Positions 10,423-32,162 of a stretch of DNA of 33,205 nt are shown piece after piece. Within the stretch, counting starts at the first letter, position 1, and each line of letters opens with the position of its first letter. The notes beneath the pieces are model-generated. The model worked only from the letters and a program-made list of their open reading frames with translations. It had not been told where the DNA came from and did not search any database. Source of the stretch: a virus (taxonomy: Duplodnaviria > Caudoviricetes); IMG/VR virus record IMGVR_UViG_3300025018_000368, positions 1 to 33,205 of that record; one strand, written 5' to 3'. The position numbers were made by a program, and so were the translations under genes.

Positions 10423-10701
10423 GTGGAAATCTGGAAAGACATCGAAGGGTTTGAAGGCCTCTACCAAGTAAGCAACTTGGGATCGGTGCGCTCACTCGCC
10501 CACCGCGTGCGCCTTATCGCCCACGGGGTAGAAACCACCAGCCTTGCAGGGCATGAGGTTTTGCACCTCAACCACACCCCGGCGGATAACCGACTCATAA
10601 ACCTTCGCTATGGCACACGCAGCGAGAACTTGCGCATGGATTACGCCGCCGGTAGCCGCAAGGTACACCCAAATTTCATTAGCGCGGGGTGGCGGCCGTG
10701 A
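10423..10701 (+). pseudogene. NUMOD4-HNH homing endonuclease with internal deletion
   Basis: EIWKDIEGFEGLYQVSNLGSVRS (NUMOD4 start) joined almost directly to EVLHLNHTPADNRLINLRYGTRSEN (HNH end); central part including the usual VHRLVA segment absent. Confidence 0.7.
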
Positions 10702-12941: not shown

Positions 12942-12942
12942 T

Positions 12943-13167
12943 ATGACGAACAAAGAATTAACACCCCCGGCCGCGTTTCCCTGGACCTGGCGCTCGTTGC
13001 TGACCGCCGCCGCGCTGGGCATCCTTGCCGCCGCTATCGCGTCTTTGGTAACCGCCGCCAACTGGGTCCCCTGTATCTTTTTGGCACTGGGCTGGGTGGT
13101 GTTTTCCTTTGGGGCCGGGCTTTTTGTGGCGCGCTGCATAGGCTTTGGCATGGGGGCAGACGAATGA
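12943..13167 (+). CDS. Small two-TM membrane protein
   Basis: AAGGA SD; two hydrophobic helices; ATGA overlap with next gene. Confidence 0.7.
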   Translation: MTNKELTPPAAFPWTWRSLLTAAALGILAAAIASLVTAANWVPCIFLALGWVVFSFGAGLFVARCIGFGMGADE

Positions 13168-13358
13168 ACCCTGTGATCACTTACGCCCACCAAAAGGTAA
13201 AGCCCTCGGTGACCGGAAACACCCAGTTTATCGGTAACGGCATCGTGAAGTGGTGCGCAATTTGTGGCACTCACAAACCCCAGCTTGGGGGCGCAACCCG
13301 CCCGGTTCTGGGCGGGCGCCACTGGGTTTGCAGCAAGCACCCCAAATTCGTTAAATGA
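13164..13358 (+). CDS. Small putative zinc-ribbon protein
   Basis: WCAICG...WVCSKH (CxxC...CxxH). Confidence 0.55.
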   Translation: MNPVITYAHQKVKPSVTGNTQFIGNGIVKWCAICGTHKPQLGGATRPVLGGRHWVCSKHPKFVK

Positions 13359-13381
13359 TTTTTACAAAAAGGACTGACACC

Positions 13382-14047
13382 ATGAAAATAACCATCCCCG
13401 CCCAAGCGCTGGCCGTCATCAGGCTGTTTGCGGCCGACGATAAGGACATCCGCGAATACCTGCACGGAGTGCACCTCGAAATAGGCGCCACCGAATCGCG
13501 CTTGGTCGCCACGAACGGACGCGTCATGGCTGCATGGCGCTTGCACACCGGGGTGCCCGATCTGGAAAAGCCGCTCGGAATCATCATCCCGCTGTCCTTG
13601 ATTGAAAAACTCAAGTTCAAAAAAGACAGCACGGTGGAGATTTGTCTCGGGGACATTCAAACGGATTCGCAAGGCAGCACCAGCCGCGCGGTCACGCTGA
13701 CCTATGACTACGACATCAGCGTGACCGGCAAAACCTGCGAAGGCATGTTTCCAGACTGGCGCCGGGTTATTCCGCCAGGCGTGACCGGCGAGGTGGCGTT
13801 CTTCGATTTGGCCTACATCACGCTACTGCACAAAGTGTGGGTGTTGCTGCACGGCAAACGTCCGGCCGCGGTAGGCCTGGGCTACAACGGCGACGGGAAG
13901 TCCCCCTGCCTGGTGCCTAACCTGGACTGCCCCGACCTGCTGGCGCTGGTCATGCCGATGCAAACCCACGCGTGCACCCCGGTCATGCCCGCGCCTGTTT
14001 GGGCCAAAGAGTCGCTGATGCGAAGCGAAGAAAACGATCTGGTGTAA
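13382..14047 (+). CDS. DNA polymerase III beta-clamp-like protein (partial clamp fold)
   Basis: DIREYLHGVHLE, LVATNGRVM, EGMFPDWRRVIP, LVMPM parallel DnaN motifs; AAGGA SD before ATG 13382. Confidence 0.8.
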   Translation: MKITIPAQALAVIRLFAADDKDIREYLHGVHLEIGATESRLVATNGRVMAAWRLHTGVPDLEKPLGIIIPLSLIEKLKFKKDSTVEICLGDIQTDSQGSTSRAVTLTYDYDISVTGKTCEGMFPDWRRVIPPGVTGEVAFFDLAYITLLHKVWVLLHGKRPAAVGLGYNGDGKSPCLVPNLDCPDLLALVMPMQTHACTPVMPAPVWAKESLMRSEENDLV

Positions 14048-14053
14048 CCCGCC

Positions 14054-14218
14054 ATGAACTGCTGCGACCACCAATGCAACCAAGGGTGCGCTTGCCCCAA
14101 CCGAAACCTGGAGTCTCGAACCATGGCCTTTATCCGACTGCTGCGCATGTATTTGCGCCACAACTTCACTGTGCGCGCTGCCGTGCGCGAAGCCTGGAGG
14201 GTGTCGCGCCATGCGTGA
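14054..14218 (+). CDS. 54-aa Cys-rich peptide (not in ORF track)
   Basis: MNCCDHQCNQGCACPNR...; fills gap and overlaps VRR-NUC start. Confidence 0.6.
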   Translation: MNCCDHQCNQGCACPNRNLESRTMAFIRLLRMYLRHNFTVRAAVREAWRVSRHA

Positions 14219-14498
14219 ATCCGACATCGAATCGCACCTGGTCAAGCGGGTGAAAGAACTGGGCGGTGAATGCCGCAAGGTGCAATGGATTGGCCGCCAC
14301 GGCGCGCCCGACCGGCTGGTGATGCTGCCCGCCGATCAGTGCTGGCACGGCGCCACCAATGCGGTCTGGGTCGAGCTCAAGGCCCCTGGCCAAAAAGCCA
14401 AACCGCACCAGTTGCGTGAGCACGACCGCATGCGCGCCCTGGGCCAGCATGTGGTGGTGATCGACAGCATCGAAGGTGTTGAGGAGCTGCTGGCGTGA
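14211..14498 (+). CDS. VRR-NUC domain nuclease
   Basis: MRESDIE, GAPDRLV, VELKAPG, QLREH. Confidence 0.9.
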   Translation: MRESDIESHLVKRVKELGGECRKVQWIGRHGAPDRLVMLPADQCWHGATNAVWVELKAPGQKAKPHQLREHDRMRALGQHVVVIDSIEGVEELLA

Positions 14499-15883
14499 GA
14501 CAAGTCTGGACCCCGCGCGCCTACCAGCGCCCCACCATCGGCCACCAGACTGACCTCAAACGTCAGGCGGTGTTTGCTGGCATGGGCATGGGCAAGACGG
14601 TGGCCACGTTGACCACCATGGACCACCTGTTCTTGTCCGGCGAAGCCACCCGGCCCGCGCTGGTGCTGGCCCCGGTACGGGTGGCACGCAGCACCTGGCC
14701 GGACGAGGCTGCGAAGTGGCAACACCTGAGCGCCATTGAAGTGCAGCCCGTGGTGGGTGACCTGGCCGAGCGCACCCGCGCACTGCGCAACACCAACGCC
14801 AACATTTTCACGACCAATTACGAGCAATTGCCCTGGCTGGTCAAGCATTTCAAGGGCAAGCCCTGGCCGTTTGGCACCGTCATCGCGGACGAGTCCACCC
14901 GGCTTAAGGGCTTCAGGCTGCGCCAAGGCGGCGCCCGTGCGCAAGCCCTGGCCCAAATCGCCCACACCAAGGTGGACCGCTTCATGGAGCTCACCGGCAC
15001 GCCCAGCCCCAACGGGCTGAAAGACTTGTGGGGCCAAATGTGGTTTCTGGATGCTGGCCAACGGCTGGGGCGCACCTGGACGGGCTTTGCTGAGCGCTGG
15101 TTTCGCCCGGCCCACGACGGCTACGGACTGGAGCCCCTGCCCTTTGCGCAAGAGCAGATCCAGGACAAGTTGCGCGATCTGTGCCTGAGCCTGGAAGCCA
15201 AAGATTATTTCAACCTGGCCGAGCCCGTGGTCAACATCATTCGCGTGGCCCTACCCAAAAAGGCCCGGGCGCTCTATGACGACATGGAAAAGAAAATGTT
15301 CATGCAGCTAGGAAGCCACGAGGTCGAAGCCTTTGGCGCGGCCGCCAGAACCATCAAGTGCCTGCAGCTGGCCAACGGCGCGGCCTATGTGGGCGACAGC
15401 AATACCGAGTTTGTTGAGGTGCACGACGCCAAGCTGCAGGCCCTGGAATCCATTGTCGAAGAAGCGGCCGGCGCGCCCATCCTGGTGGCCTACCACTTCA
15501 AGAGCGATTTGGCCAGGCTACAGCGCACGTTCCCAAAAGGGCGGCAACTCGATGCCGACCCAAAAACCATCACGGAATGGAACGCCGGGCACATACCGGT
15601 GTTATTCGCCCACCCGGCCAGCGCCGGCCACGGCCTCAATCTGCAAGACGGCGGCAACATCATCGCCTTCTTTGGCCACTGGTGGAACCTGGAGGAATAC
15701 CAGCAAATCATTGAGCGCATTGGCCCCACCCGGCAAGCCCAGGCCGGGCATGACCGACCTGTGTTTATCCATCACATTGTGGCTGCGGACACGGTGGACG
15801 AGATGGTGATGGAACGGCGCGACGGCAAAGCCGAAGTGCAAGAGATTTTGATGCAAGCAATGAAACGAAAGGGACTCAAGTGA
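14495..15883 (+). CDS. SNF2-like SF2 helicase
   Basis: GMGMGKT, IADES, LTGTP, HPASAGHGLNLQ, RIGPTRQ. Confidence 0.92.
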   Translation: MRQVWTPRAYQRPTIGHQTDLKRQAVFAGMGMGKTVATLTTMDHLFLSGEATRPALVLAPVRVARSTWPDEAAKWQHLSAIEVQPVVGDLAERTRALRNTNANIFTTNYEQLPWLVKHFKGKPWPFGTVIADESTRLKGFRLRQGGARAQALAQIAHTKVDRFMELTGTPSPNGLKDLWGQMWFLDAGQRLGRTWTGFAERWFRPAHDGYGLEPLPFAQEQIQDKLRDLCLSLEAKDYFNLAEPVVNIIRVALPKKARALYDDMEKKMFMQLGSHEVEAFGAAARTIKCLQLANGAAYVGDSNTEFVEVHDAKLQALESIVEEAAGAPILVAYHFKSDLARLQRTFPKGRQLDADPKTITEWNAGHIPVLFAHPASAGHGLNLQDGGNIIAFFGHWWNLEEYQQIIERIGPTRQAQAGHDRPVFIHHIVAADTVDEMVMERRDGKAEVQEILMQAMKRKGLK

Positions 15884-16221
15884 AAGAGACAGATCCAAAT
15901 GGAAAAAACGCCAATGATCCCGGGTCCAAACTGGACGCAGGTAAAAATCGTCTCGGGCTCGTGCTTGGTGGTTTCGCATTGGCGCTGGAAGAAGTCGGAC
16001 GAGTCGGCACCTTTGGCGCAGCCAAGTACGCCCCCAACGGCTGGATGTCAGTGCCCGGTGGTGTCGAGCGCTACACCGACGCCATGTACCGCCACCTGAT
16101 GAAAGAAGCGCAGGGCGAATTGATCGACCCCGATTCCGGGACGTTTCACGCCGCACAAGCGGCCTGGAATGCCCTGGCCCGCCTCGACATGATGCTCAGA
16201 AAGTGGGGCCAGGCATCATGA
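15880..16221 (+). CDS. dATP/dGTP diphosphohydrolase-domain protein (DUF5664-like)
   Basis: GSKLDAGKNRLGLV, VGTFGAAKYAPNGW, RYTDAMYRHL, DPDSGTFHAAQAAWNAL. Confidence 0.8.
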   Translation: MKETDPNGKNANDPGSKLDAGKNRLGLVLGGFALALEEVGRVGTFGAAKYAPNGWMSVPGGVERYTDAMYRHLMKEAQGELIDPDSGTFHAAQAAWNALARLDMMLRKWGQAS

Positions 16222-16907
16222 AGCCCTGGACCCCCGCCGACATCGCGCTCATGCGCGAGCACTACCCCGACAAAACCGCCGCCGAGGTGGCCGCCATGCT
16301 CGGGCGCAAGGTAAGCACCCTGTACCAGGCGGCCGCGCGCCACGGCATCCAGAAAAGCGCGGCCTTTTATGCTAGCGACAGATCCGGCCGCAGCAAACGC
16401 GGCCGCGAAGACGAGCGCATGAAGGTCGGGCAGTTTACGCCCGGCTTCGTGCCCTGGAATGCGGGCATGAAAGGCTGGTGCCCGCCGGGGAGCGAGCGCA
16501 CCCAGTTCAAGAAAGGGCAAATGCAAGGGGCCGCTCAAAAGAATTGGGCGCCAATTGGCAGCTACCGCATCACCACGGGCGACCAGATACTGCAGCAAAA
16601 GACGTCTGACCAGCCCGGCCCAGGCTGCTACCGCTGGACCCCAGTGGCTCGGCTGGTGTGGGAAGCCGAACAAGGCCCCATTCCAGCAGGCGCAATGGTC
16701 GTATTCAAGCGCGGCATGAAAACCAGCGTGCTGGAAGAAATTACCCTGGACAAACTGGACTGCATCAGCCGCGCTGAAAACGCCAGGCGCAACCACCCGC
16801 GCAACCGGGACCCCGAGCTGGGCCGACTGATACAGCTCAAGGGCGCCATTACCCGACAAGTCAACCGCATCAACCGTGAACACCAACAAACAGGAGTAAC
16901 CCCATGA
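16218..16907 (+). CDS. HNH-family protein with N-terminal DNA-binding region, active site apparently degenerate
   Basis: WTPADIALMREHYP, QFTPG/QFKKG repeats, ARLVWEAEQGPIPAG...LDCISRAENARRN. Confidence 0.75.
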   Translation: MKPWTPADIALMREHYPDKTAAEVAAMLGRKVSTLYQAAARHGIQKSAAFYASDRSGRSKRGREDERMKVGQFTPGFVPWNAGMKGWCPPGSERTQFKKGQMQGAAQKNWAPIGSYRITTGDQILQQKTSDQPGPGCYRWTPVARLVWEAEQGPIPAGAMVVFKRGMKTSVLEEITLDKLDCISRAENARRNHPRNRDPELGRLIQLKGAITRQVNRINREHQQTGVTP

Positions 16908-17191
16908 CAAGCCAACCCCACATCACCGAACTGCGCCAGCACCTTATGGACACGCTGGCCGACTTGCGCGACCGCAAGAACCCCATGGAGCCCGACCGCG
17001 CCCGCGCTGTTGCCCAGGTGGCCAGCGTGTTGATCGACACCGCGAAGGTCGAGAACGATTACCTTCGCTTGTCCGGGCAAGACCGTTCAGTCTTTTTGGA
17101 ACAACAGGACGCCACCTTGCGTATTGTCAACACCAAGCCCACCGCAAACAACCCGTTTCCGGTCAGCGTGCGGCACCAACTTGAAGGGTAA
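16904..17191 (+). CDS. Phage hypothetical protein
   Basis: AGGAG SD; ITELRQHLMDTLADL...ARAVAQVASVLIDTAKVE; ATGA-coupled to the HNH-like gene. Confidence 0.75.
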   Translation: MTSQPHITELRQHLMDTLADLRDRKNPMEPDRARAVAQVASVLIDTAKVENDYLRLSGQDRSVFLEQQDATLRIVNTKPTANNPFPVSVRHQLEG

Positions 17192-17196
17192 ACACC

Positions 17197-17406
17197 ATGA
17201 GTGAAGCATCAATCCAGCTCACCCCGGCGCCATACATCACCATCCCCTTGGCGGCCGTGGTAACCGGCTTGTCTGAAAAGGCAATCCGGCGCAAGATAGA
17301 GGATGGCAAGTGGCTGGACGGTCGGGAATACCGCCGTTCGCCAGACGGCGGCATATTTATCTCAATCAAGGGGTACTCATCATGGGTAGAACAGGCGACT
17401 GGGTAG
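17197..17406 (+). CDS. xis: Excisionase
   Basis: TGLSEKAIRRKIEDGKWLDGREYRRSPDGGIFI winged-helix pattern; overlaps integrase start. Confidence 0.85.
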   Translation: MSEASIQLTPAPYITIPLAAVVTGLSEKAIRRKIEDGKWLDGREYRRSPDGGIFISIKGYSSWVEQATG

Positions 17407-18554
17407 AGATCCGGGACAGCAGCATCCGGCTCCGCTTTATGTTTGAGGGCAAGCTGCAGCGGCCCACCCTAAGGCTCAACGGCGAACCAATGGCCCCCAC
17501 CGCGGCCAATGTGAAGTATGCGCACCGTCTGGCCAACGAGATCAAAGATAAGATCCGGCACGACACCTTCAGCATGGCCGAATACTTCCCGGCCAGTGGC
17601 GACGGGGGCGCGCTCACCGTTGGTACCCAGCTTGACACCTGGCTGGGTGCGCAACGCATCGAGGAATCCACCCGGGCCGGGTATGAAAGCGGGGTGCGCT
17701 TTTGGAAAATCGCCCAACTCGGGGGCAAACCGCTGCGGGCACTGCGCACCAGCCACATCCTTACCGCGCTGGCAACCCGGCCTGAGCTCACCGGCAAGAC
17801 CGTGAACAACTATGTGGGCGTGCTGCGTGAGGCCATTGAGCTGGCGGTCACTGACAAGATACTGATGGAAAACCCCGTGCTCAAAGTGCCCCGGGCAAAG
17901 CACCAAAAGGAACCCGCCGACCCCTTCAGCCGCGATGAGATGGAAAAGATCGTGGCCGACCTGAAAGCCAAGCACCCCGGTCAGGCGGCCAACTTCGTGG
18001 AGTTCTGGTTCTGGACGGGCATGCGCACCAGCGAGATATTTGGCCTAAGCTGGGCCAACGTGGATCTGCCCAGCGGTACCGTGCTGGTGGCCGAAGCCCT
18101 GGTGCGGGGCATCCACAAAGACCGCACCAAGACCAACGTGGCGCGCGTGGTGAAACTCAATAGCCGGGCACTCGCCGCGATCCAGGGCCAGCGCGCCCAC
18201 ACGCAAGTGGCTGGCGGCCCGGTGTTTCAAGACCCCCGGTACAACACACCCTGGGTGGACGAGCGCGCATTCAGACGCAGCTACTGGACACCCACACTCA
18301 AGCGGCTGGGCATTCGGTACCGTCGCCCCTACAACATGCGCCACACCTACGCCACGCTCATGCTGATGGCCAATATGAATTCAGCTTTTTGTGCGCGCCA
18401 GCTCGGCCACAGCGTGGAAATGTTCCACAAAACCTACGCCCGATGGCTCGACGGTGATCAGAACGATATGGAAATGGCCCGGCTGGAAAACACCCTAATT
18501 GCCCCGACATTGCCCCGTAAACAAATCAAGGACTCGCAAGGCCTTGATTTATAA
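17382..18554 (+). CDS. int: Tyrosine integrase with N-terminal arm-binding domain
   Basis: TGMRTSE, RTKT, YNMRHTYAT, QLGHS, TYARW; adjacent to att core; likely ATG 17382. Confidence 0.95.
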   Translation: MGRTGDWVEIRDSSIRLRFMFEGKLQRPTLRLNGEPMAPTAANVKYAHRLANEIKDKIRHDTFSMAEYFPASGDGGALTVGTQLDTWLGAQRIEESTRAGYESGVRFWKIAQLGGKPLRALRTSHILTALATRPELTGKTVNNYVGVLREAIELAVTDKILMENPVLKVPRAKHQKEPADPFSRDEMEKIVADLKAKHPGQAANFVEFWFWTGMRTSEIFGLSWANVDLPSGTVLVAEALVRGIHKDRTKTNVARVVKLNSRALAAIQGQRAHTQVAGGPVFQDPRYNTPWVDERAFRRSYWTPTLKRLGIRYRRPYNMRHTYATLMLMANMNSAFCARQLGHSVEMFHKTYARWLDGDQNDMEMARLENTLIAPTLPRKQIKDSQGLDL

Positions 18555-20223: not shown

Positions 20224-20562
20224 TTACACCGACGGGAAGCCAGCCGCGTCCACCTGGGCTTTGACGGCGTTGCGGTAGGCGGTGTAACTGGCGTAGGCCA
20301 CGTCGTCACCCAACAGCTTGTTGTTGAGCACCGCGATCTCGTCGTCTTTGCTGTAGCGCGCGGCTACACCTGCAGAGATCAACGAGGCACGCGAGGGCGC
20401 GCCCGCCAGGGCCATGCTGTCGCACTCAAAGCTATCAGGCGTGGCCTGGGTGTCTTTGGTGGCGGGTGCGCCGGGGATCAGCGTGGCGTTCAGGTTGAAA
20501 AACCAAACGCCCGCGCAAGCGTGCAAGGCGGGAGGCAGTTGGGTAGAGTGCATTTTGTTCAT
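20224..20562 (-). CDS. 112-aa hypothetical protein downstream of RT (in frame with the frameshifted RT)
   Basis: Own AGGAG SD and ATG overlapping the native RT stop (ATGA); MNKMHSTQLP...RYSKDDEIAVLNN...YTAYRNAVKA. Confidence 0.8.
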   Translation of the reverse strand: MNKMHSTQLPPALHACAGVWFFNLNATLIPGAPATKDTQATPDSFECDSMALAGAPSRASLISAGVAARYSKDDEIAVLNNKLLGDDVAYASYTAYRNAVKAQVDAAGFPSV

Positions 20563-21609
20563 TGGAAAGCTCCTTCGAGGGTATAGCGCCCGGTACGAGT
20601 GATCACTCGCTGGCGCAGGGGTTTGGAAACGTGGTGATTGAAAAGGCCTTTGGCCTGGGCGAAGCGCATCCACCCGTAGTAACTCATGATGGAGGACAGC
20701 ACGGCGGCCGGGGTCCTTGCGGTGCCAGGCTTTACGGTGTTGGCACATTTGGCGGCGAAACTTGTCGGCGATGCGGCGACGCACTAGCGTGTGCGTGCCG
20801 AAAAATCGGTATCCCAAAAAATCGACACCCCGCACAGCTACCGGGAACACCTGCCAGTTGTCTTTGAGGGTCAATTCAATGGCCGCCAGTTTGGCCTCAA
20901 ACAAGACGCGCAACTGGTGCAGCTTAGCGGGATCATCGAGCAGCACCACGATGTCGTCGCAGTAACGAAAGTAGTATTTCAGTCCCAGCACCTCTTTGGC
21001 CCAGTGGTCAATGCTGGACAGGAACAGGTTACCCAGAAACTGGCTCAGGTAATTGCCAATGGGCACGCCCGCCAACACCGAGTCAATGATGCCGTCGATC
21101 AGCGCCAGCAGGTCAGGGTCTTTGATTTTCAGGCGAACGACCAGCTTTAGCAGCGGGTGGCTGATAGAAGGGTAAAACTGGGTTACGTCCATCTTGAGGC
21201 AGTAGCGCGTGCCCTCGGGGTCATCACGCATGGCCGACTGCACCCGGCGCACGCCATCATGCACGCCCCGGTTTTTCATGCTGGCGTAGGTGTCACGGAT
21301 GAAGGTGCGCATCCAGATGTCTTCGACCACTTGCATGATGCAGTGGTGAGTGATGCGGTCGGGGAAATAGGGCAACGCGTAGATCACGCGCCGTTTGCCG
21401 TTGTCCACCTTGTCGAACACCCGATAAGGTGAGGTGACGTAGGTCTTTTCGACCAGCATTTTCTGGATTTGCGCAACACACTCGTCCAGGTGGTCGTCAA
21501 CCCACTTGACCTCGTCATACTTAACTTTGCCCTTGCGGGCATTTTTGTGCGCCAGCCGGATGTTCTCCGGCGTGCAGACCTTGGCATAAAGGTTACCGTA
21601 GCGTTTCAT
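20559..21609 (-). CDS. DGR reverse transcriptase with a one-base frameshift near 20710-20713
   Basis: PYFPDRITHH, LKMDVTQFYPSI, GVPIGNYLSQ (DGR SQ motif), YFRYCDD, GVDFLGY; native tail SIMSYYGWMRFA...* lies in the adjacent frame. Confidence 0.93.
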
Positions 21610-21724
21610 ACGGTTCCTGTCCCGGCCCGGAGCCTTCGGCGGTAAAGCCTACCAACACCAAAGGGCCGTTCAATATTTCGCCAAGGGGCGCGGAAACCCT
21701 GTCCTGGATTCAAGGAAAGGACAG

Positions 21725-21840
21725 ACTCCGTGCGCGTGCCGATATTCACATTCGAATTGCCTGACGCATTATTCAAATTGAGCGTGAGAGGACCCGCTAT
21801 CGCGCCATTATTCGCATTCGTCCCAACATAGGGGGTACGC
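21725..21840 (-). repeat. DGR template repeat (TR)
   Basis: Aligns ungapped to 21915-22030 at offset 190; AAT-rich; 21 of 22 mismatches are at TR adenines. Confidence 0.97.
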
Positions 21841-21909
21841 GGTAAAGCGCCAAACGGCGGGCTCTTCGGGTTAGCGGACAGGGTTCCCATTTGTCAAATT
21901 CAAAAAATT

Positions 21910-23187
21910 TCAGAACCCCGCGCGCGCGCCGATACCCCCACCCGAATCGCCCGACGCACTACCCAAAAAGAGCGCGAGAGGACCCGCCACCGCGCCATCA
22001 TTCGCATCCGCCCCAACATAGGGGGCACGCCACGGTTTGGTAGCAGCAGCGTCGTAACCGTACTGCCAGGTATGCTGACGCGCCTTGGTGGTGTCGGTGC
22101 CCCCCAGCGAATCAGGCATGAACCCCACAATGTTCTCGCGCAGCGTAGCGGTGTAACCCAGATTGGCTGCGCCAAAGTTGGTCATGTCCCAGAGCTTGGT
22201 CATGCCGGTGCTGCCGGTGTCGGCAAAATAGGCGCTGTCGTTGGTCACCCAGATCGGCATGGCCGTGGCGGTATCGTTAGCTGTGGCGTCCACCGTCATG
22301 CCATCAACGAACTTCCAGACATGGCCCCAGAAGTTTTCGACACCTCGGTAGCTCATCACGTCGGTCAGATAGCCCAAGGTGGTACCGAGCGCCACACTGC
22401 CGCTGCCATTGCCGAAGCTGTTCGACAAGCCTGTCAACGCCAGGTAGCTGTTGACCACCCACGAACCTCCCGACAGGTTCACCCGGCCCGCGCCAATGGC
22501 GCCCTTGATGTTGAAGCTGCCAAACTCCACCAGCGCCAGCAGTTGCAGCGCGCTGTGTGTGTAGTAGTCATACTGGCGCCAGCCAGCGCCCCGGGCCACC
22601 GCAGCGGCGCGGAACTGGGCGCGGGTGTAGGTTGTTTTTGGCAACACACCAGACACGGACGCGATTTTGGTGGTGCTCAGACTGGCCTCGTACGCGCTGG
22701 TGTAGCGGTAAGGTACCTCGACCCCGTTTTTGATAAACGCTGGGTGTACGCTGAATCCGGCCAGGGGCTGTTCTGCAATATCCCAAGTGTGCCGGGTACC
22801 GACGTAGCTGTAACGTTGGTAGAACTTGGGCACCTCGACCATCACCTGGCCCGCCACGCCCGTCAAATCGGCAACTCCACCCGCCTCGGTGTACGCGCTG
22901 TTGAGCGGGTGCAGATAGCTGACCACCTCGCCCGCATCATTGAGCAGGCAGCGGCGCATGCGCGACTGGATAGGCAGCGCAATAGCCGCCGTGGCCGACC
23001 CGGTGCGCACATAGGTGTCGGCGGACTCATCCCAGCTCAAACCGTAGTAGTTGGTCAGGTCGGTGGATCCCGTGGGCTCCAGCGCGGCCAGCCCTTTGGC
23101 CGCATAGGCCAGCTTTTGCAAATCGGTTTCGGTGGCCGATACGGTGGCGATACGCGCTACGAGTGCGCTTTGTGCAGTGGATGCCAT
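21910..23187 (-). CDS. DGR target: putative receptor-binding tail protein with C-terminal CLec-type variable region
   Basis: AAGGA SD; GQVMVEVPKFY, YRGVENFWGHVWKFVDG, ends in VR ...GIGARAGF; directly follows tail fibre. Confidence 0.9.
   Translation of the reverse strand: MASTAQSALVARIATVSATETDLQKLAYAAKGLAALEPTGSTDLTNYYGLSWDESADTYVRTGSATAAIALPIQSRMRRCLLNDAGEVVSYLHPLNSAYTEAGGVADLTGVAGQVMVEVPKFYQRYSYVGTRHTWDIAEQPLAGFSVHPAFIKNGVEVPYRYTSAYEASLSTTKIASVSGVLPKTTYTRAQFRAAAVARGAGWRQYDYYTHSALQLLALVEFGSFNIKGAIGAGRVNLSGGSWVVNSYLALTGLSNSFGNGSGSVALGTTLGYLTDVMSYRGVENFWGHVWKFVDGMTVDATANDTATAMPIWVTNDSAYFADTGSTGMTKLWDMTNFGAANLGYTATLRENIVGFMPDSLGGTDTTKARQHTWQYGYDAAATKPWRAPYVGADANDGAVAGPLALFLGSASGDSGGGIGARAGF
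21915..22030 (-). repeat. DGR variable repeat (VR)
   Basis: Encodes RAPYVGADANDGAVAGPLALFLGSASGDSGGGIGARAG versus TR RTPYVGTNANNGAIAGPLTLNLNNASGNSNVNIGTRTE. Confidence 0.97.
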
Positions 23188-23202: not shown

Positions 23203-24924
23203 TTAAAAAAAGTTAAGGCAAAAATCTGAATCCGCCGTCACGCGGGCCGCGCTGGCAGCAGAAACGCTGGCGCTGGCGGCAGAAACGCTGGCGCTGGCGG
23301 CATTGGTAGTGGCGGCGATGATGCTGGCCATGTTGTCGGCCGCTAGCGCCACGTCAGCCGCGATGCCCGCCACGGTGTTGATGTTGGCCAGCGCACCCGC
23401 AACCGTGGTCACGTTGGCCTGAATGCCTGCCACAGTGGTCACCGCCGGGGCGACACCTGCAACCGTGGTCACGTTGGCCTGAATGCCTGCCACAGTGGTC
23501 ACCGCCGGGGCGACACCTGCAACCGTGGTCACGTTGGCCTGAATGCCTGCCACGGTATTCACGTTGGCAACGGCGTTGGCAACGGTGGACACCGCTGGCG
23601 CAACCCCCGCGACAGTGGTCACGTTGGCCTGAATGCCTGCCACGGTATTCACGTTGGCAACGGCGTTGGCAACGGTGGACACCGCTGGCGCGATACCGGC
23701 CACGGTACTGACAGCACCGTCGATCGTGGCGACAACCCCGACGCTGTAGGCAATACCCGCCACGGCGGTGACGTTGGCCTGAATGCCTGCCACGGTGGCT
23801 ACCGCCGGGGCGACACCCGCCACGGTCGTGACGTGATGCCCAATGTCTGCCACCTGGGGCACTTTCACCAGCAGGTGCAGGGCATCGGCCACGGCCACAA
23901 TCTCGTCCACCGCGAACGCCACCTCGTTGATGGCGCCCGAGCTGGTGTTGAGCGCCACCACGGCCGCTTCAACGGCGGCCACAGTGCCCAAAGCCGACAA
24001 GGCGTGTGCGGCCGCATCCACGGCGGACTGATTGGCCGCCACGGCACTGCCAGCGGCCTGGCTGGCACGCGCGGGGGCTTCTTTAATTGCGATGATGTTG
24101 GCCGCTGCCGTGCTCACTGCAGCGGAAATGCCTGCCACGGTGGTGACGTTGCCAGAGATACCGGCCACAGTGGTGACGTTGCCAGAGATACCGGCCACAG
24201 TGGTGACGTTGCCAGAGATACCGGCCACAGTGGTCACCGCAGGGGCGACACCCGCCACGGTGGTGACGTTGGCCTGAATGCCCGCCACGGTGGTGACGTT
24301 GGCCTGAATGCCCGCCACGGTGGTGACGTTGCCGGCAATGCCTGCCACGGTGGTGACGTTGCCGGCAATGCCTGCCACCGTGTCAATATCCGCAGCTGAA
24401 TTTTCAACCGTTTGCACCGACGCAATGGTGGGCCCGGCCTCCGGGTCTCCCGTGGTTTCGTTGAACGCCAGCACGCGGCCCGCGCGGTGACTCACATCGG
24501 GCATGACCGGGTTGACTGTTGCGTCATTGAGCGGCATGACCAGGGCGCGGTCGGCCTTTTCCTGCACCTGCTGCACCTGGATGGTGGCCCGGTCCATGGC
24601 GTCATTGATCACGCGCGGGTAAAAGCCCCCCGAGTTGGTGAGCTCCATGGGCTGCAGGTTGCCCACCTGACTGGTCACAACCACCTGAATGCCAGTTGCC
24701 GGGGCTGCGATGAAAGTCACTGTGCCGCCGGGACTGGCGTCTTGGTCTGCGTTGAGCGTTGCGGTGTAGTCGGTACCCAGCACCGCCACCGTTTCGGCAC
24801 CGCTGGTGTATTTGCTGACCCGCAAATCGCCCGCAGCGAACACCTTAAAGGTGAACGGGAAAACGGTGGTAGCGCCGTTGCCGGTAAACGGGCCAGCTTT
24901 GCGCAAGGTGCTGGAGATAGTCAA
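23203..24924 (-). CDS. Tail fibre with podovirus N-terminal adaptor and 10-aa repeat shaft
   Basis: TTG start with AGGAG SD; GNGATTVFPFTFKVF, GGFYPRVINDAMDRATIQVQQ; many NVTTVAGIxx repeats. Confidence 0.88.
   Translation of the reverse strand: MTISSTLRKAGPFTGNGATTVFPFTFKVFAAGDLRVSKYTSGAETVAVLGTDYTATLNADQDASPGGTVTFIAAPATGIQVVVTSQVGNLQPMELTNSGGFYPRVINDAMDRATIQVQQVQEKADRALVMPLNDATVNPVMPDVSHRAGRVLAFNETTGDPEAGPTIASVQTVENSAADIDTVAGIAGNVTTVAGIAGNVTTVAGIQANVTTVAGIQANVTTVAGVAPAVTTVAGISGNVTTVAGISGNVTTVAGISGNVTTVAGISAAVSTAAANIIAIKEAPARASQAAGSAVAANQSAVDAAAHALSALGTVAAVEAAVVALNTSSGAINEVAFAVDEIVAVADALHLLVKVPQVADIGHHVTTVAGVAPAVATVAGIQANVTAVAGIAYSVGVVATIDGAVSTVAGIAPAVSTVANAVANVNTVAGIQANVTTVAGVAPAVSTVANAVANVNTVAGIQANVTTVAGVAPAVTTVAGIQANVTTVAGVAPAVTTVAGIQANVTTVAGALANINTVAGIAADVALAADNMASIIAATTNAASASVSAASASVSAASAARVTADSDFCLNFF
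23350..24380. repeat. Two blocks of coding 30-bp tandem repeats with 60- and 90-bp higher-order units
   Basis: GCCACAGTGGTGACGTTGCCAGAGATACCG-type units at about 24130-24380; duplicated 60-mers at about 23400-23550 and 90-mers at about 23525-23690. Confidence 0.9.
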
Positions 24925-24995: not shown

Positions 24996-27900
24996 CTAGC
25001 GCGGCTCTTGGTAGCCGGTCAGCACCGCCCCCGGGTTTTGCGTCTTACCGTCGGCCAAGGCCTCGATCCCGTTGATGGTGCGGTTGATCTGCGCGGCCGG
25101 CAGTTTGAACATGTCACCCGCCGCATTGACCACCGATTTGCGCAGCGGCGCGTCGATGTCGCCCTGGCCCACCTGCTTGGCCAGCTTGAGAATATCAGCG
25201 GCCATGCGCGTGCCCACTGCACCGCCGTAGTCCCCGCCGGGGTCGCCCGCGAACGCGGCGCCCAACTGCGCAATTTCCCGAAACCCCACCAGCTGCCCGA
25301 GCATGAAGTTCATTTGCTCCTTGAGGTACTTGGTGGCCAGCTTCTCGGCGTCGTCTTCGCCCGAGTCGCCGGGTGTCAGGGCTGCGGTGAGCATCATGGC
25401 CATGAACGTGGGCAGCGCGTTGACCAGCACCAAGTCCACCGCTTTGGCCCCCACGGACTGGTCCGACCGCAGCACCCGGTAATTGACGTTGAGCGTGGTA
25501 TTCATGAAGGCCATGAAACCCGTCAGCAGTCGGAATGCCCCGGTGGCACGCTCCAGGCTGGCCAGGTCTTTTTGCAAGCCACTGCCCTGGGCGTCAATGA
25601 CGGCCTGGTCTGCCAGCGCCACGGCCATGTCTTCGTCTTGCCCGGCGTCAATGGCTTTTTCGTAGCCGCCCCACCAGGTGGGCACGTCGACCGCGCTTTG
25701 CATGGCCAGCATCATGACGTAGCCGCCCTGGTCAAGCGCTTTGCGCACTTTGCCGGTGTCTTGCACCGTGGCGTTGACCTCAGCCAGGTCGCGCATGCGG
25801 GTGGTGGCGCGTTTGGCCATGAAGCTCGACTTGTCCACAGCCTGCAGATAGGCCTGGCGCGGGTTACGCATGGCGTGCGCCACTCCGCGAGCCATCCACT
25901 TGGCACCAATTACGCTGATGCTTTGGGTGTAGCCGGTCACCTGTTTGGCCGCGCTCAACACATTGAAGGCCAGCCCGGCAAAGGTAACGTTTCGCGCCAG
26001 CTCGACCATCTTGCGCTCGGCCGCGTTGCGGGTGGGTTGCGACCCTGCAGCATTGTCCCCGGTCCACTGGCGCAACTGGTGCACCACCTCGGACCCGTAG
26101 TACCGGCGCATGGGTGCGTCCATGGCTTTGATCAGGCGATTGGCGTCAATGATCCAGGGCTGCCAGTGCAGGTAATGGATGGTATCTTGCAGGCTGCCCA
26201 CCATGGCGTTGAGCGACAGCAGCAGCGGGCGCCCCTTTACTTCCTCGGCCCGGGCTTTGACAAAAGATTTGCTGACCGTGCTGGCCACGCGCGCGGCCTG
26301 CATCATGGCTTTGGCGTCTTTCTGGTCGGCAAAGCTGGCCGACTTGCCGTTGGCCCGGGGGTCATACACCACCGGGGCATAACCGCCGCGCAGTTGCAGG
26401 GTGATGCCGTCGCTGGTTTTGACTTCCAGCGGTACCGCTTCCACCCAGTTAGGTTCAACCCCGTTGATCAGGCGCTCCATGGCCCCCACGCGCGGGCGAA
26501 ACGACTCGTAGTAGTCCCACATGCCCTGCACGAACTGCCAGTCCGCTGCGCTCAGAGTGGCCAGCACGGGTTCAATCTGCGCAGGGGTCCAGCCCTCGCC
26601 ATCGAGCAAGCGCTGGCGGTTGCCGTCGTTGCCCAGGTTCAGCGCCATCACAATGCGCGCCTGGCGGTTCAGGCTGCGGTCAATGGCGGGGAAGTATTGC
26701 GCCCGGTCGGTGATGTTGCCCAGGTTCTTGACCGGCTTGAGCAGGGCCTGCACCGCGTCGTGGGCTGCGGCCACTTCGACCACCTCACCGTTGGCGGCGT
26801 CGTTGGCCGTCATCATCAGGTGCTCCCACATGGGGCCGCCCGCGCCCCCGTCCATGATGTGCAGCAGGTTGGCCGCTTTGATGTGGCTAAAAAAGAACCC
26901 GCGCCAGCTCAGACGGCTTTGGCCTTTCTGGTCGTTGGGGGTGCGGGTGTCGCCCGCCTTGCGCCCGGCCTTGATGGCGACCCGACTCAGGTGGTCGGTC
27001 ATGCGCGCCACCACTGCGTCAAACTCGCGGTTTTTGCGGTCGGTCAACACCTTTTTGGTGCGCCGACCGATATGCTCGATTTGCTTGATGGCCTGCACCA
27101 GCCCGCGCATCTCTTCGACCGTGGCGTCCTTGTAACTGCGCACCTCGATCTGGTCGATGAACCCGGCCAGCAGCAGGGCCTGGTCTTCCTCGTTGGGGTA
27201 GATCAGTTCGCCGTCGGAGTTGGTGCGCTGGATCTCGGCGGCGTACTGTGCGCGTTGCTTTGGCCCAAGCAGTAGCTCGGCATTGGGCGGTACCAAACCG
27301 TTGTCAATCTGCGCCTTGGCCCAGGTGCGAAACTGGGCCGCGTTGTCCAGGCTTTTCAGGGTGATGCCCTTGCGCAAGTCAAACTTGCCCAGCAGCGCCT
27401 GGATTTGCTCGAAGTGCTCGGCCGGGATGCTGCCCGGTTTCTGCACCCGATCAAAATAGGCCAGCGCTTTGGCAATGTCGTCTTGCGCGGCATAGGCTGC
27501 CTTGGTGGCGTACAGGTTGATCAGCTGGTTGCGCTTGTGCATGGTCTGTTTGGTCAGGTCACCCAGCGCCTTCTCTGCGGCCTTGGCGGCACGCACTTCG
27601 GCCGCCGCGTACTGGTGCGGCCGGATGTCGCGCACCTTGAGGCGGGCAATGACGGTATCGGCATGCGCTTTGGCCATTTGCACCAGCACGTCGACCGTGT
27701 GCTTTTTGCCTGGTATCAGGCCACGCACGCTCATGGCCTGCGCCAGGGCTTTGAGTTCGGTCGCCACAAAGCGCACCCGGGCGTCGTTGTGGATGGCCGC
27801 ATCGGTGGCGCGCTCCAGCCCGGCCGGGGTGGCCAGGTCCCCGTGTTCTTCCAACATGCGCTGGTCGGTCATGCCCTCGATCACATCTTTGGGGTTTTGT

Positions 27901-30900
27901 GCATCGGCCAGCGCTTTGACCAGCTTACCCCCCGACTCAAAGCCAAACATGGCGCCCACTACGTCGGGGTGCAGCCCGGTTTCGTCGCTGGTCATGCGCA
28001 GCTTTGAGAGCTTGCGCCAAAGCGCGTCGTCTTGCGTGCCGTACATGTAGCGCAGATCCTCGGTGCGCAGTTTGCCGTAACCAAAGTCCGGCAGATCCGG
28101 CACGTCCAGGGGGGCGTCCCCGTAGGCCGCCGCCATGTCGCGGTGAATCGAGAACCGGTCTACCCCGCGCAACTGGTCGTCCCACATCTCCTCGAACTTG
28201 TCCAGGTCGGCTTTGCCGTTCTCGTCGGGCAGCAAGTAACCGTATTCCAGCAAGCGCTCGGCCATGGCGTCCAGGCCGTAGCCCTTGGTCTTGCGCACCA
28301 CGGGGGTGCCAAACACGCCAGATTCAGCCGCGCCGTTCTTGGCCTCATAACCCCACTGCGCTTTCACTTGCGCGGCGTCCAGGCCGCCCAGCTTGGCAAT
28401 GGCGGTGAACAGGTTGTCCACCTCGGGGTTGATGCCGACCGACTGGCCCACGGGCTTGTCGCCCACCACCTTGTCGCCGGCCTTGGCGGTTAAAAACGTC
28501 CAGGCCCGGTACAGGGGCTGGCGCATAACGTCGGCCTTGACTTCTTGCTCGATGCGTGCACGCAAGGTGTCGTGCATCTTTTGCATTTCTTTGAGCTTGC
28601 GACTGCGGGCGTTGCGCAGCCACTGCATATCGGCCAGCCCTTTGGCTTGCAGCGCGTCCACCGCGTCCAGCGTGGCCTGCTTGCCCGCGTCGTGGTAACG
28701 CTGGTATTCGTCCAGCGTCATACCCGCTTCTTCGGGCGTCTTGAACAGCGGCCCCATGTTGCGCGCGGCCTCGGCCTGGGCGATCTGGTCGTTGGTGGCG
28801 AGCATGCGGTCCATCACGGCGCGCACCTCGTCGGTGAGCTCCACCTTCAGGGCCCCGCCGATGTCGCCGGGTGTGGCGCTGACCGACTTCAGCATGGCGC
28901 GGTAGACGTTCACCAGCCAGGCGCGAAAGGTCTGGAACATCTTGGTCAGTTCCAGGCTGGGGCTCTTGCCCTCGAAGGCATAGGCCTCAAAACCGCGCGC
29001 CCATTGCTCGTGGTGCGTGCGCTTTTCATCAGGCGTCATCAGGTACCAGGTGTCCAGCGCCGACAACTCGGGCGAGCCTGTCACCCCCAGCCAGGCCAGC
29101 GTGGTGTTGAAGTCATCTAGCACGGCGCGTTCTTCGGGCCTGAGGCTGTCCAGACCAAACACATTGGCTTCCTGCTGAAGCTTGGTGGCCAGGTCGGCAT
29201 GCACTTCCAAAAAGAAGTGACCGCCCTCGTGGACAAAGGTCGAAAGGTCGGCCCCGCTCAGCATGCTGATGATGCTGGCTTGTTGGGTGATGTCGTTGCC
29301 GAAGGCGATCTGGCCACGGGCATCCTGCATGAATACCACCTGCCCAAATCCGCGCGGCTTGTAGCTCATGATGTTGCCGGGTATTTTTCTGTAAACACTC
29401 TCGGTTTCGCTGCGCAGTGGCGGCTGGTCAATGGCGCGGTTTGCCGCTGTGTCACCGCCAACCGTTTCTCGCGCGGCGCGTTGGACAATCATGCTTATAC
29501 CGGCTTCACTGGTGAAGCCCGCAGCCATCATAGACCGCATGTAGTCAATCCGGACGTTGGTTACGTATATCCCTAAACCGTATTTGTCGGCGATCTCTTT
29601 GGCCTCGGTAATGATGACGTCGCCGGGCGCTTTGTTGTGGTTTGCGGTGATGTTGCCCAGGCTGTCCAGCAAAAACGCGCCAGGCGTACCGATCAGGTCG
29701 TTGAGGTCTTCGAGCTCTTGAGCGACTTTTGGGGCGAGTAGCTTCCAATCTTTGGCGGGCAGCGGTTCGCGCCGGTGTGGATCGTTTCGGTAACTTTCGG
29801 GTAGCAGACTGACGACGTCGTTGTATTCGGCGCGGCTCCAGTTACGAGTTTGTGGCCAGGCTTTGAATTTTCCATCTTTGGATATTACGCTCGATTTACC
29901 ATCTTGGTGCAGGATGTTGGCGTCCTTGGGGTCGTAAGTGCCCCGGTTGAAAACGCTTTTGATTTGCTCAGGCTTGAACGCCACGTAGGTGGTGGAATTC
30001 TTGGCGGCTACATCACCCACGCCCTGGTCGTGTACTTTGGACACCACCACCCCGTCGTACTTCCCGGAGTCCTTGGCTAATTGCACAATGTCGTTCAGGC
30101 TGCGGTATTCGCCCTTGTAGAGGATTTCCCGCCAGTTTTCACCCTTGGCGTTGACCCGCAACGGCTTTTTCAGGCTGATGTGAACCGGCATGACGTTGGC
30201 GTTGTCTTTGAGTTTTTCCGAAAAGTCGCCCCGCCACTGCACGGTATAGCTGCTGGCTACGGCCGGGTCATCAGTAAAAAAGTAAGTGCCTTCGGGCGCA
30301 CCCGTTTTGGAACTTTTGCCGGAGAGTCCAGGGTCGAAGTTGTCAAAGTCGCCTGACATGAATTCACCACGGTTGCCGACATTTACCCCGGTACCGTGGT
30401 ACACCACCAGCGGCTTGCCCTCCTTATCCACCACCTTGCTGTCCCCGAACCAGCCCTTGAATGCTTCGCTCTCAGGGGCCAGCTTGCCCTGGTCGTACAT
30501 GCCGTCCGTGCTGCTTTGCCCGCTGAACCCCAGTTTGTACCGGTCGGCAAAGGCCTGCACGCTCACGCCAGTGCGCGCGGCCATGACGGCGTAGAAGGTG
30601 CCCGCCAGTGTGGCGTAATGCTCGTTGACCTTGGGGGTGAAGCGCCCCACAGCGTTGAGTTGGGTCAGCAGCTGGGCCTGCACGGCTTCGCGCCCGGCGT
30701 TGAATTCGGTGTTGGTTTGCTTTTCCAGCAGCACCGATTCAATCTCTGCGTTCAGCGCGTCGCCTTTTTCCTGCATGTAGGTTTTGGCCTCAAGGCGACT
30801 CATGGCGCCCACGTCGGTGCGGGCGTTGTCGATCAGGCTTTGCGAGAATTCGGCGCCGATGGTGCCCACCAGCAGCTCGGCGGTCGGTATCACCAAATCA

Positions 30901-32162
30901 CCCCCGGTTTGCACTTGGTCAAGTTGCGTGGCCACGCTGGGCACGGCCCGGGCCAGGGCTTGCAAGTCCACCCCGGCCTCGATCAGTTTGGCGCTGTCGA
31001 CAAACACGGTGCCCGCGCCATCGTCGATCAGGTCTTGCATGTAACCGGCCAGCGTCTCGGGGCTGCGCTCCAGCATTTTTCCGGCCTGCATCGTGGTTTG
31101 CAGGTCCTGCAGGAGCTGGGCCTGCTGTTCGGCGTGGGCTGCCAGGCGGTCGCTCTGGCTAGCACGCGCCATGACACTTTCAACACCTTTAATGACACCG
31201 ATCTGGGTGCCCCCGCCCACCAGCGTGGCGATGGCGGTTTGCATCAGTGCCTCGGGCTGTTCGGCGAAGAACTCACCAATGGACTTGTCGGGGTTGACGT
31301 TGCCCCATTCGTTGAAGTTCTGCCACAGCGTGGCGGCACCTTCGCCGCGCAGCTCCTTAGATATCTCGTAGCCGAACAGCTTGCCCGCGCTGGCCCCGGC
31401 CTTGACGTTTTTCAGCAGGCCAGCCACGCCCAGAAACTTCTCAGTGACGATCTCGGCCGTGGCGTCCTGGATGCCGTAGGCACCCGCTTGGGCGGGGCTC
31501 AGGCCCGCGTCGCGCCCCTTGCCGTAGGACTGCCCCCCGGCGGCCAGGCCCATGGCCCCCAGCATGAGTTGTTCCCCCGCGACACGCGCGCCATTGGCAA
31601 AACCAAGGGGCAGCAGGGCCAGGGTCTGGCCGGCACTCTGAAAGCCCGACATGACACTCTTTTCAACAAACCCGGCGTCCGGGTTCGCGCCCATGACCTG
31701 GTTCGCTAGGCCTTGCGCGTTGCGTTGTTGCTGGCGCATCCAGCCCCCCGCGCTCTCCAGCCCCACCAGTTCGGTCGGAAAGGCGGCCGCGCCCCATAGG
31801 CCCGCGCTCAGAGCGGGCAGGCCACTGGCGATGGCGCGCGGCACCTTGGCCAACATGCTGGCGCTGGTTTCCAGCAGGCCCATGTTGTCCAGGTCGTCAT
31901 GCGCGATTTGCGCCCGCTGGGGCTCGGCGGCCAGCCAGCCGCGAAGCTTGGGGGATTGGTCCAGCACCGCGTTGGCCTCATCCAGTTTGGCGCGGGTTTC
32001 GTACTCAGGCTTGTACTCGGCAATTACCCCGGGGGGCAGGCCGTAGCGTTGGGCCAGTTTGGCGTTTTGGGCGACCTCGTCGGGTTTGGCTTCCAGGCCA
32101 AAGCGCAAATTGGCGCGCGCTTGCACGTCCATGCCGTCATCAAAAAGATCAGTGTTTGACAT
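24996..32162 (-). CDS. Giant internal virion (ejection) polyvalent protein, 2388 aa
   Basis: Position before tail fibre as in BPP-1-like phages; ART-like segment FKGWFGDSKVVD..PLVVYHGT..YVAFKPEQIKS; metallopeptidase motif TFVHEGGHFF. Confidence 0.85.
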   Translation of the reverse strand: MSNTDLFDDGMDVQARANLRFGLEAKPDEVAQNAKLAQRYGLPPGVIAEYKPEYETRAKLDEANAVLDQSPKLRGWLAAEPQRAQIAHDDLDNMGLLETSASMLAKVPRAIASGLPALSAGLWGAAAFPTELVGLESAGGWMRQQQRNAQGLANQVMGANPDAGFVEKSVMSGFQSAGQTLALLPLGFANGARVAGEQLMLGAMGLAAGGQSYGKGRDAGLSPAQAGAYGIQDATAEIVTEKFLGVAGLLKNVKAGASAGKLFGYEISKELRGEGAATLWQNFNEWGNVNPDKSIGEFFAEQPEALMQTAIATLVGGGTQIGVIKGVESVMARASQSDRLAAHAEQQAQLLQDLQTTMQAGKMLERSPETLAGYMQDLIDDGAGTVFVDSAKLIEAGVDLQALARAVPSVATQLDQVQTGGDLVIPTAELLVGTIGAEFSQSLIDNARTDVGAMSRLEAKTYMQEKGDALNAEIESVLLEKQTNTEFNAGREAVQAQLLTQLNAVGRFTPKVNEHYATLAGTFYAVMAARTGVSVQAFADRYKLGFSGQSSTDGMYDQGKLAPESEAFKGWFGDSKVVDKEGKPLVVYHGTGVNVGNRGEFMSGDFDNFDPGLSGKSSKTGAPEGTYFFTDDPAVASSYTVQWRGDFSEKLKDNANVMPVHISLKKPLRVNAKGENWREILYKGEYRSLNDIVQLAKDSGKYDGVVVSKVHDQGVGDVAAKNSTTYVAFKPEQIKSVFNRGTYDPKDANILHQDGKSSVISKDGKFKAWPQTRNWSRAEYNDVVSLLPESYRNDPHRREPLPAKDWKLLAPKVAQELEDLNDLIGTPGAFLLDSLGNITANHNKAPGDVIITEAKEIADKYGLGIYVTNVRIDYMRSMMAAGFTSEAGISMIVQRAARETVGGDTAANRAIDQPPLRSETESVYRKIPGNIMSYKPRGFGQVVFMQDARGQIAFGNDITQQASIISMLSGADLSTFVHEGGHFFLEVHADLATKLQQEANVFGLDSLRPEERAVLDDFNTTLAWLGVTGSPELSALDTWYLMTPDEKRTHHEQWARGFEAYAFEGKSPSLELTKMFQTFRAWLVNVYRAMLKSVSATPGDIGGALKVELTDEVRAVMDRMLATNDQIAQAEAARNMGPLFKTPEEAGMTLDEYQRYHDAGKQATLDAVDALQAKGLADMQWLRNARSRKLKEMQKMHDTLRARIEQEVKADVMRQPLYRAWTFLTAKAGDKVVGDKPVGQSVGINPEVDNLFTAIAKLGGLDAAQVKAQWGYEAKNGAAESGVFGTPVVRKTKGYGLDAMAERLLEYGYLLPDENGKADLDKFEEMWDDQLRGVDRFSIHRDMAAAYGDAPLDVPDLPDFGYGKLRTEDLRYMYGTQDDALWRKLSKLRMTSDETGLHPDVVGAMFGFESGGKLVKALADAQNPKDVIEGMTDQRMLEEHGDLATPAGLERATDAAIHNDARVRFVATELKALAQAMSVRGLIPGKKHTVDVLVQMAKAHADTVIARLKVRDIRPHQYAAAEVRAAKAAEKALGDLTKQTMHKRNQLINLYATKAAYAAQDDIAKALAYFDRVQKPGSIPAEHFEQIQALLGKFDLRKGITLKSLDNAAQFRTWAKAQIDNGLVPPNAELLLGPKQRAQYAAEIQRTNSDGELIYPNEEDQALLLAGFIDQIEVRSYKDATVEEMRGLVQAIKQIEHIGRRTKKVLTDRKNREFDAVVARMTDHLSRVAIKAGRKAGDTRTPNDQKGQSRLSWRGFFFSHIKAANLLHIMDGGAGGPMWEHLMMTANDAANGEVVEVAAAHDAVQALLKPVKNLGNITDRAQYFPAIDRSLNRQARIVMALNLGNDGNRQRLLDGEGWTPAQIEPVLATLSAADWQFVQGMWDYYESFRPRVGAMERLINGVEPNWVEAVPLEVKTSDGITLQLRGGYAPVVYDPRANGKSASFADQKDAKAMMQAARVASTVSKSFVKARAEEVKGRPLLLSLNAMVGSLQDTIHYLHWQPWIIDANRLIKAMDAPMRRYYGSEVVHQLRQWTGDNAAGSQPTRNAAERKMVELARNVTFAGLAFNVLSAAKQVTGYTQSISVIGAKWMARGVAHAMRNPRQAYLQAVDKSSFMAKRATTRMRDLAEVNATVQDTGKVRKALDQGGYVMMLAMQSAVDVPTWWGGYEKAIDAGQDEDMAVALADQAVIDAQGSGLQKDLASLERATGAFRLLTGFMAFMNTTLNVNYRVLRSDQSVGAKAVDLVLVNALPTFMAMMLTAALTPGDSGEDDAEKLATKYLKEQMNFMLGQLVGFREIAQLGAAFAGDPGGDYGGAVGTRMAADILKLAKQVGQGDIDAPLRKSVVNAAGDMFKLPAAQINRTINGIEALADGKTQNPGAVLTGYQEPR

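Follow-up and report, generated by a model that had tools for sequence, protein, structure and literature searches.

The excess of A-to-G changes in the variable region (VR) of a DGR carried by the DNA analysed here, 33,205 nucleotides of a Caudoviricetes phage (IMG/VR record IMGVR_UViG_3300025018_000368; hereafter the window), is judged, with somewhat better than even confidence, to combine a context pattern common to a whole subclade of reverse transcriptases (RTs), which is likely set by the RT, with one unusually G-rich allele. A more tentative proposal, held at a little under even confidence, is that the RTs of this subclade work in two modes, giving a random base at AAT codons of the template (TR) and almost always G at adenines before G or C, in which case adenine would be a silent stand-in for G, AAC would have given way to AAT, and tyrosines at the positions of F143 and L184 of the BPP-1 enzyme (bRT) would be candidate determinants. 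Adenine-specific change in DGRs and the direction of bias exerted by a +1 G were already known, and the new part is a clade-wide, near-deterministic rule at sites outside AAY codons. This clade-specific context rule is unreported in the literature covered, which excludes most subscription papers, supplements and figures and in which sources are cited for the covered part of their text; general biases towards G or T over C are described (PMC10743442, 10.64898/2026.07.21.739853), while the covered parts of bioRxiv 2023.09.22.558884, PMC11792537 and 10.64898/2026.02.18.706561 contain nothing bearing on the rule. All evidence consists of assembled genome snapshots taken after integration and selection, from which we infer the mechanism, and such snapshots cannot tell a bias of the RT apart from RNA editing or the repair of G:T mismatches.

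The cassette lies on the minus strand in the order target, VR, 74-nt gap, TR, spacer and RT (Table 1) and is, to judge from its sequence, an avd-less phage DGR of the target-VR-TR-RT type. The VR-TR gap contains no ORF and leaves no room for avd, a search of the contig (about 70% complete) with BPP-1 Avd, run without a positive control, returned nothing, and the 112-aa gene beyond the RT has no family match, an NCBIfam search included. The window RT contains both DGR motifs, [ILV]GxxxSQ and YxDD, and R74, I181, Q187 and both catalytic aspartates of bRT are conserved. The predicted fold of the target (pLDDT 83.9 overall and 62–77 in the VR region) resembles the C-type-lectin-like DGR variable protein TaqVP, with the VR at the 3' end of the gene; the top Foldseek match is 5vf4 (E 7.9e-09) at a moderate TM of about 0.4, and in a PDB search by sequence TaqVP matched the target only weakly (E 0.013). 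No special RNA fold of the TR was detected between 21600 and 21900, as this interval folds no better than its shuffles (z -1.16).

Table 1. Coordinates of the DGR cassette within the window
Feature	Position	Strand	Description
Small 112-aa gene	20224..20562	-	overlaps RT stop (ATGA); not Avd-like
DGR RT	20559..21609	-	349 aa when intact; IGNYLSQ, YCDD; PF00078; phrog_1423, E 7e-109
TR-to-RT spacer	21610..21724	-	near-identical in L001; likely part of the DGR RNA
TR	21725..21840	-	116 nt, 29 adenines; in-frame AAT x9, AAC x0; 8 adenines before G/C
G/C-rich VR 3' end	21915..21931	-	putatively IMH-like, from its position; 3 of the 19 G at 21927, 21921, 21917
VR	21915..22030	-	target residues 387–425; 19 A>G, 2 A>T, 1 T>G against TR
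Target gene	21910..23187	-	phage tail protein of 425 aa (phrog_5302, tail protein; E 4.6e-81), variable at the C-terminal end

The contig encodes an integrase, a repressor, a DNA polymerase and a terminase, and belongs to a temperate tailed phage. At 8243–18554 of the window a Gp2.5-like SSB, DNA polymerase, helicase and integrase follow the gene order of BPP-1, and the combination of this BPP-1-like replication and integration order with an avd-less DGR suggests a cassette swap. The tail fibre gene that lies upstream of the target contains repeats with a 30-nt period (23277–24411), and 24996–32162 encodes a polyvalent protein of 2388 aa in which LPD22 and ART-PolyVal domains are recognised.

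TR (21840–21725) and VR (22030–21915) align without gaps over 116 nt on the minus strand, and 21 of their 22 mismatches fall at adenines, which is the hallmark of DGRs. The hand count in the earlier note was exact on realignment (29 TR adenines, 21 changed, 19 to G, 2 to T and none to C, with 8 still A), as was its statement that the sole non-adenine difference is a T>G (21748/21938). By context, the 19 G comprise 8 before G or C, 10 at AAT codons and one at ATA; G is found at all 8 window adenines before G/C and at 10 of the 12 changed AAT positions. The three G in the G/C-rich end, a feature matching the description of IMH as a GC-rich 3' boundary (PMC5758913), are fixed in all haplotypes covering those sites and in the relative L001.

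The probability of at least 19 G among 21 changes is 8e-8 under equal thirds; this is the wrong null, because published surveys found G commonest and C rarest with a wide spread from VR to VR (DiGReF, PMC3521204; for the order of bases also PMC6642488), which also departs from the earlier note's picture of DGRs as balanced A-to-N mutators. Against the pooled G share of 0.62 in 80 distinct related TR/VR pairs (G/C/T 1116/270/405, or 62/15/23%) the probability becomes 0.0044, while a codon-context model built from 106 related VRs gives 0.0017 and the subclade rates give 0.0037. A G share of 0.90 or more is reached by none of the 106 related VRs (maximum 0.88) and by 3 of 210 VRs in four other RT groups. 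The window VR stands at the upper end of this range without leaving it, and is of a kind that a scan selecting for extremes can turn up. Its AAT sites exceed the model prediction (10/12 G against a clade share of 0.45, P=0.008) and do not differ significantly from those of its siblings (22/38, p 0.17); their G-richness is treated as that of an upper-tail allele.

Eight of 23 listed runs, all represented by contigs and not reads, were compared (X1, X2, X3, X4, X5, X7, X8 and X10), and these contain five VR haplotypes, namely A (window and X1; G/C/T 19/0/2), B (X2, X3, X4, X5 and X8, also L100; 15/0/3), C (X3 and X4; 15/3/2), D (X10; 13/1/1) and E (X7, partial; 6/1/1). A metagenome scan found one locus only, which carries haplotype B. 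No TR differences are listed across the compared runs and the TR of L100 is identical, while outside the VR the contigs of the eight runs have one listed difference (22046) besides an indel in the RT. Across haplotypes 19 of the 29 adenine sites vary and 10 are fixed (8 as G, 1 as T, 1 as A). As far as these contigs go, VR variation is focused on TR adenines with an invariant TR. The synonymous site 21952 is G in all five contig records covering it and in L001, and 21975 in haplotype B is likely a G-to-A reversion. The T>G of the window at 21938 is absent from the six other runs covering the site, and non-adenine changes to G that adjoin changed adenines occur in siblings at 21992 (X10, X7) and 21934 (X3, X4). 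A slippage rule for non-adenine changes was tried on 39 cases and rejected, as T>G before A was commonest and no clear +1 templating was seen.

The target protein cluster has seven members, and decoding at AAT codons on the assumption of the window TR gives 6G/3C/2T for P0123 (one amino acid different outside the VR) and 3G/7C/1T for P0124. The VR of L001, which has the nearest RT (90% identity), reads 14G/3C/4T. P0123 and haplotype C, and likewise P0125 and haplotype A, have the 3' half of the VR in common and differ in the 5' half, which hints at patchwise rewriting or at recombination between haplotypes. Related DGRs with two VRs per TR (L012, L014, L015, L037 and L060) differ widely in G share between them, the two VRs of L015 having G/C/T of 3/2/11 and 7/4/7. 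Many VR variants of homologous targets are also present in two other phage lineages, represented by the P0008 cluster (109 members) and P0029–P0073.

On a tree of 145 RTs the window belongs to a subclade of 51 tips (support 0.935), which has 52 tips and support 0.975 in a rerun with two more RTs. The subclade was drawn after the trait labels had been seen on the tree and its p-values are therefore flattering; the contrast is also present in query-defined groups, which were fixed before any tree. In the 106 related VRs the G share is 0.95 at ACN, 0.96 at AGN and 0.87 at four-fold third positions, and 0.45 and 0.43 at AAT positions, while A is left at only 7–16% in the first three classes, compared with 47–87% in the BPP-1, VP585, ANMV-1 and Versailles RT-query groups where counts existed. 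For the clade counts, one VR per TR cluster was taken from the first to the last AAY codon only (49 clusters in the subclade and 102 in the rest). The counts exclude duplicated pairs, those shorter than 80 nt and the family to which the window belongs, and include at least one non-DGR repeat pair (L384) in the comparison group. Interior non-AAY adenines before G or C read G233/A33/T5/C0 in the subclade, or 233/271 G (about 85–86%), and G73/A171/T18/C9 in the rest, or 73/271 (p 3e-46), whereas AAY sites show no difference (G 226/893 and 484/1822, p 0.52).

The templates of the subclade also differ in codon use, having 8.8 AAT and 1.3 AAC per template against 3.1 and 6.9 elsewhere. Tyrosine occupies the bRT F143 position in 51/51 RTs of the subclade and 16/94 others, and the L184 position in 49/51 and 23/94, respectively, a correlation that makes the two residues (Tyr146 and Tyr187 in the intact RT) candidate determinants. 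The YxDD variant was rejected as a cause (AAY G share 0.46 for YCDD and 0.45 for YMDD), and in-frame TR stops were discarded as extra evidence, as there is one case in the 49 subclade clusters and four in the other 102, all from the likely non-DGR pair L384.

It is unlikely that the RT is an ordinary one and that G becomes absorbing after reverse transcription, with an isolated G:T mismatch repaired or skipped during patchy integration and the clustered mismatches of AAY codons passing. The hints of patchwise rewriting in the target variants agree with this, as do the mixed and always-A sites among sibling pairs (9/37) and the report that mismatch repair limits retrohoming in Bacteroides, while in that same study loss of MutS left base frequencies unchanged (bioRxiv 2024.11.15.621889). 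Absorption is also opposed by the AAY sites, which accumulate no extra G, by the likely reversion at 21975, and by the way in which the trait tracks the RT clade across loci of 29–62% GC. Where sibling VRs differ at AAY within 15 nt on both sides, the pair stays GG at 28/37 sites between in the subclade and 1/45 elsewhere, a test of flanking sites weakened by the patchwise rewriting that P0123 and P0125 suggest.

Selection at structural positions of the protein was named as a competing explanation by the earlier note, and in its fullest form selection and boundary effects alone would account for the data, framework Ala, Gly and Arg and the 3' G/C tract fixing G on top of a generic G>T>C order and chance supplying the rest. 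Four of the eight window context sites are at VR edges, eight of the ten fixed sites are G, the Gly, Ala and Arg residues of these columns hardly vary, and across all DGRs G replaces about half of the adenines that change (MetaCSST, PMC6642488). This account is nevertheless rather improbable, being disfavoured by the interior four-fold synonymous sites, which read G52/A8/T1 in the subclade (52/61 G) and G22/A34/C3/T4 elsewhere (22/63; p 8e-9), since protein selection cannot explain a rule that holds at silent positions. One homologous column holds 23 of the 61 subclade sites, and with the commonest homologous column dropped the contrast is 30/38 against 17/56 (p 7e-6); it also holds when counted per cluster (all G in 29/37 against 9/42), and only 3 four-fold sites are at +1 C. 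ACN sites have G and T at about 129:6, although Ser would presumably often be tolerable there. Dividing the relatives' VRs into synonymous and non-synonymous sites, as the earlier note had proposed, gave a G excess before G/C at silent sites and mixed outcomes at AAY codons. Host GC was likewise rejected as a driver: G share is not significantly correlated with locus GC (rho 0.16, p 0.16; at AAY sites rho 0.14, p 0.16), and the context rule persists in loci below 40% GC, where 32/41 sites are G although T is the commonest four-fold base.

Sorted by triplet, the subclade has G at 48/52 CAC, 84/89 CAG, 12/15 GAG, 7/9 AAG and 4/15 GAC sites, and at only 30/66 second positions of in-frame AAC codons, which are followed by C; because of the low values at GAC and AAC the +1 base alone is not the whole rule. 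The highest values, at sites with a 5' pyrimidine, would suit an editing of TR RNA from A to I at context sites with inosine copied as G, and bRT-Avd does place dC opposite hypoxanthine in 96–97% of cases (PMC7826257). Such editing is very unlikely here, as a scan of 23 ORFs of the window found no deaminase, the distribution of the trait follows the phylogeny of the RT and not the host, and GAG and AAG are also mostly G.

The window RT has one extra base near 20710, by which the conserved C-terminal S[YF]xGW segment is replaced and the RT is fused in frame with the downstream 112-aa gene into a 461-aa ORF ending at 20224. The base is missing from seven of the eight runs, from L100 (99.5% identity over 6.8 kb) and from L001, and present in X1. 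As L100 and L001 encode intact RTs of 349 aa, the repair that the earlier note thought necessary before testing the enzyme is dispensable. The 15.2-kb contig of X1 (depth 18.9) is identical to the window over 20600–22150, the T>G and the frameshift included, and neither is thus an artefact of one assembler; assembly error was dropped as an explanation of both, while X1 is a possible source of the window DNA and not independent support. The window lineage is likely frozen unless complemented. Lineages of this one phage with broken and with intact RT both occur in groundwater-type samples. That the frameshifted RT, acting as a G-biased mutator, produced the window allele together with its T>G is highly improbable: the most G-rich of the five haplotypes is indeed the frameshift-linked one, against which stand the single case, the removal of a segment conserved in the clade, which makes loss of activity likelier, the non-significant difference from siblings at AAT sites, and the non-adenine changes at 21934 and 21992, which occur in siblings from intact-RT runs and are of a kind common in DGRs.

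The reading favoured by the earlier note, an RT making almost only A-to-G transitions at all adenines, can hardly be maintained, as the 19 of 21 in the window VR, with zero C shared by only 2/106 related VRs, is set against sibling haplotypes with the same TR, target variants as decoded above and the nearest relative, among which A>C and A>T occur and contradict it at AAT codons. The observation itself was confirmed and the interpretation holds in part: an RT peculiar to this element and making transitions almost alone is not supported, while a narrower form is, in which adenines before G/C in the subclade end up as G at about 86% of sites, synonymous ones included.

The mechanism proposed for the context pattern is that the RT, having copied a template G or C, would mostly place dC opposite the next adenine, and an adenine before G or C would thereby act as a quasi-G. 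Framework codons for Ala, Gly and Arg could then acquire A in the TR at little cost, diversification would be confined to AAT codons, which give mixed G, T and C, and the move of subclade TRs away from AAC and towards AAT would be accounted for. Selection on framework residues and the unmutated 3' boundary add to the fixed G's, and the siblings with intact RT carry other VRs.

If this is true, the number of TR adenines greatly overstates the repertoire of these elements, and 4^n estimates for crAss-like and gut phage DGRs would need correcting. What makes DGR RTs err at adenine, and what decides the base they insert, has been investigated almost exclusively in BPP-1; a natural clade that follows another, near-deterministic context rule would provide a comparative handle with named candidate residues, and would add an Avd-free RT with another bias to the tools for mutagenesis in vivo. 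The VR that prompted the analysis is, taken alone, just an extreme allele.

Among known systems, the window matches lineage 3 DGRs (TG-TR-RT, architecture A1, CLec3 targets; PMC5758913) in the order target-TR-RT, the lack of avd and the C-terminal VR. The crAssphage LMMB, one published lineage 3 member (PMC7290462), has 44% RT identity to the window RT and G at 6/8 sites with A before G/C, and joins it in a clade of 60 tips (support 0.865), while the nested subclade of 52 tips leaves LMMB out; a context-dependent A-to-G rule is unreported in the covered parts of both papers. Within the subclade, the DGR of Psychrobacillus phage Perkons (MT325768; recorded host Psychrobacillus) has 50% RT identity and G at 11/13 such sites, and its annotated RT ORF is intact, unlike that of the window.

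Survey-level bias of G over T over C is reproduced by the related pairs when pooled, while a split by context and clade uncovers the strong bias at non-AAY sites; DiGReF, which stopped short of an analysis by codon, had argued that the enzyme itself is not strongly biased (PMC3521204). Non-adenine TR/VR differences are described in 23% of DGRs (PMC5758913), errors at U have been published at 12% of mutations, and BPP-1 shows some errors at U. In unselected Bacteroides VRs adenine is the commonest base at most sites (bioRxiv 2024.11.15.621889), which would weigh against the proposed rule if it applied to the subclade.

The BPP-1 DGR (mtd-avd-TR-brt) has the adenine-specific TR-to-VR change seen in the window, but possesses avd and an AAC-type TR, whereas the window DGR is without Avd and uses AAT. 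In BPP-1, dC accounts for 59.3% of the errors made in vivo, with AAU biased towards Gly or Asp (PMC12875486), a template +1 G biases towards A>G (bioRxiv 2025.03.24.644984), and bRT in vitro prefers dA over dC over dG, with L184A and M214V shifting the bias towards dC (PMC7826257). Unlike in the subclade, however, +1 G lowers the error rate of BPP-1 and +1 C favours A>C (bioRxiv 2025.03.24.644984; PMC12875486), while the subclade rule extends to CAC and TAC, where BPP-1 favours A>C. The rates differ as well: BPP-1 errs at about 30% on average, and in BPP-1-like VRs roughly one isolated site in two is still A, whereas such sites are about 86% G in the subclade.
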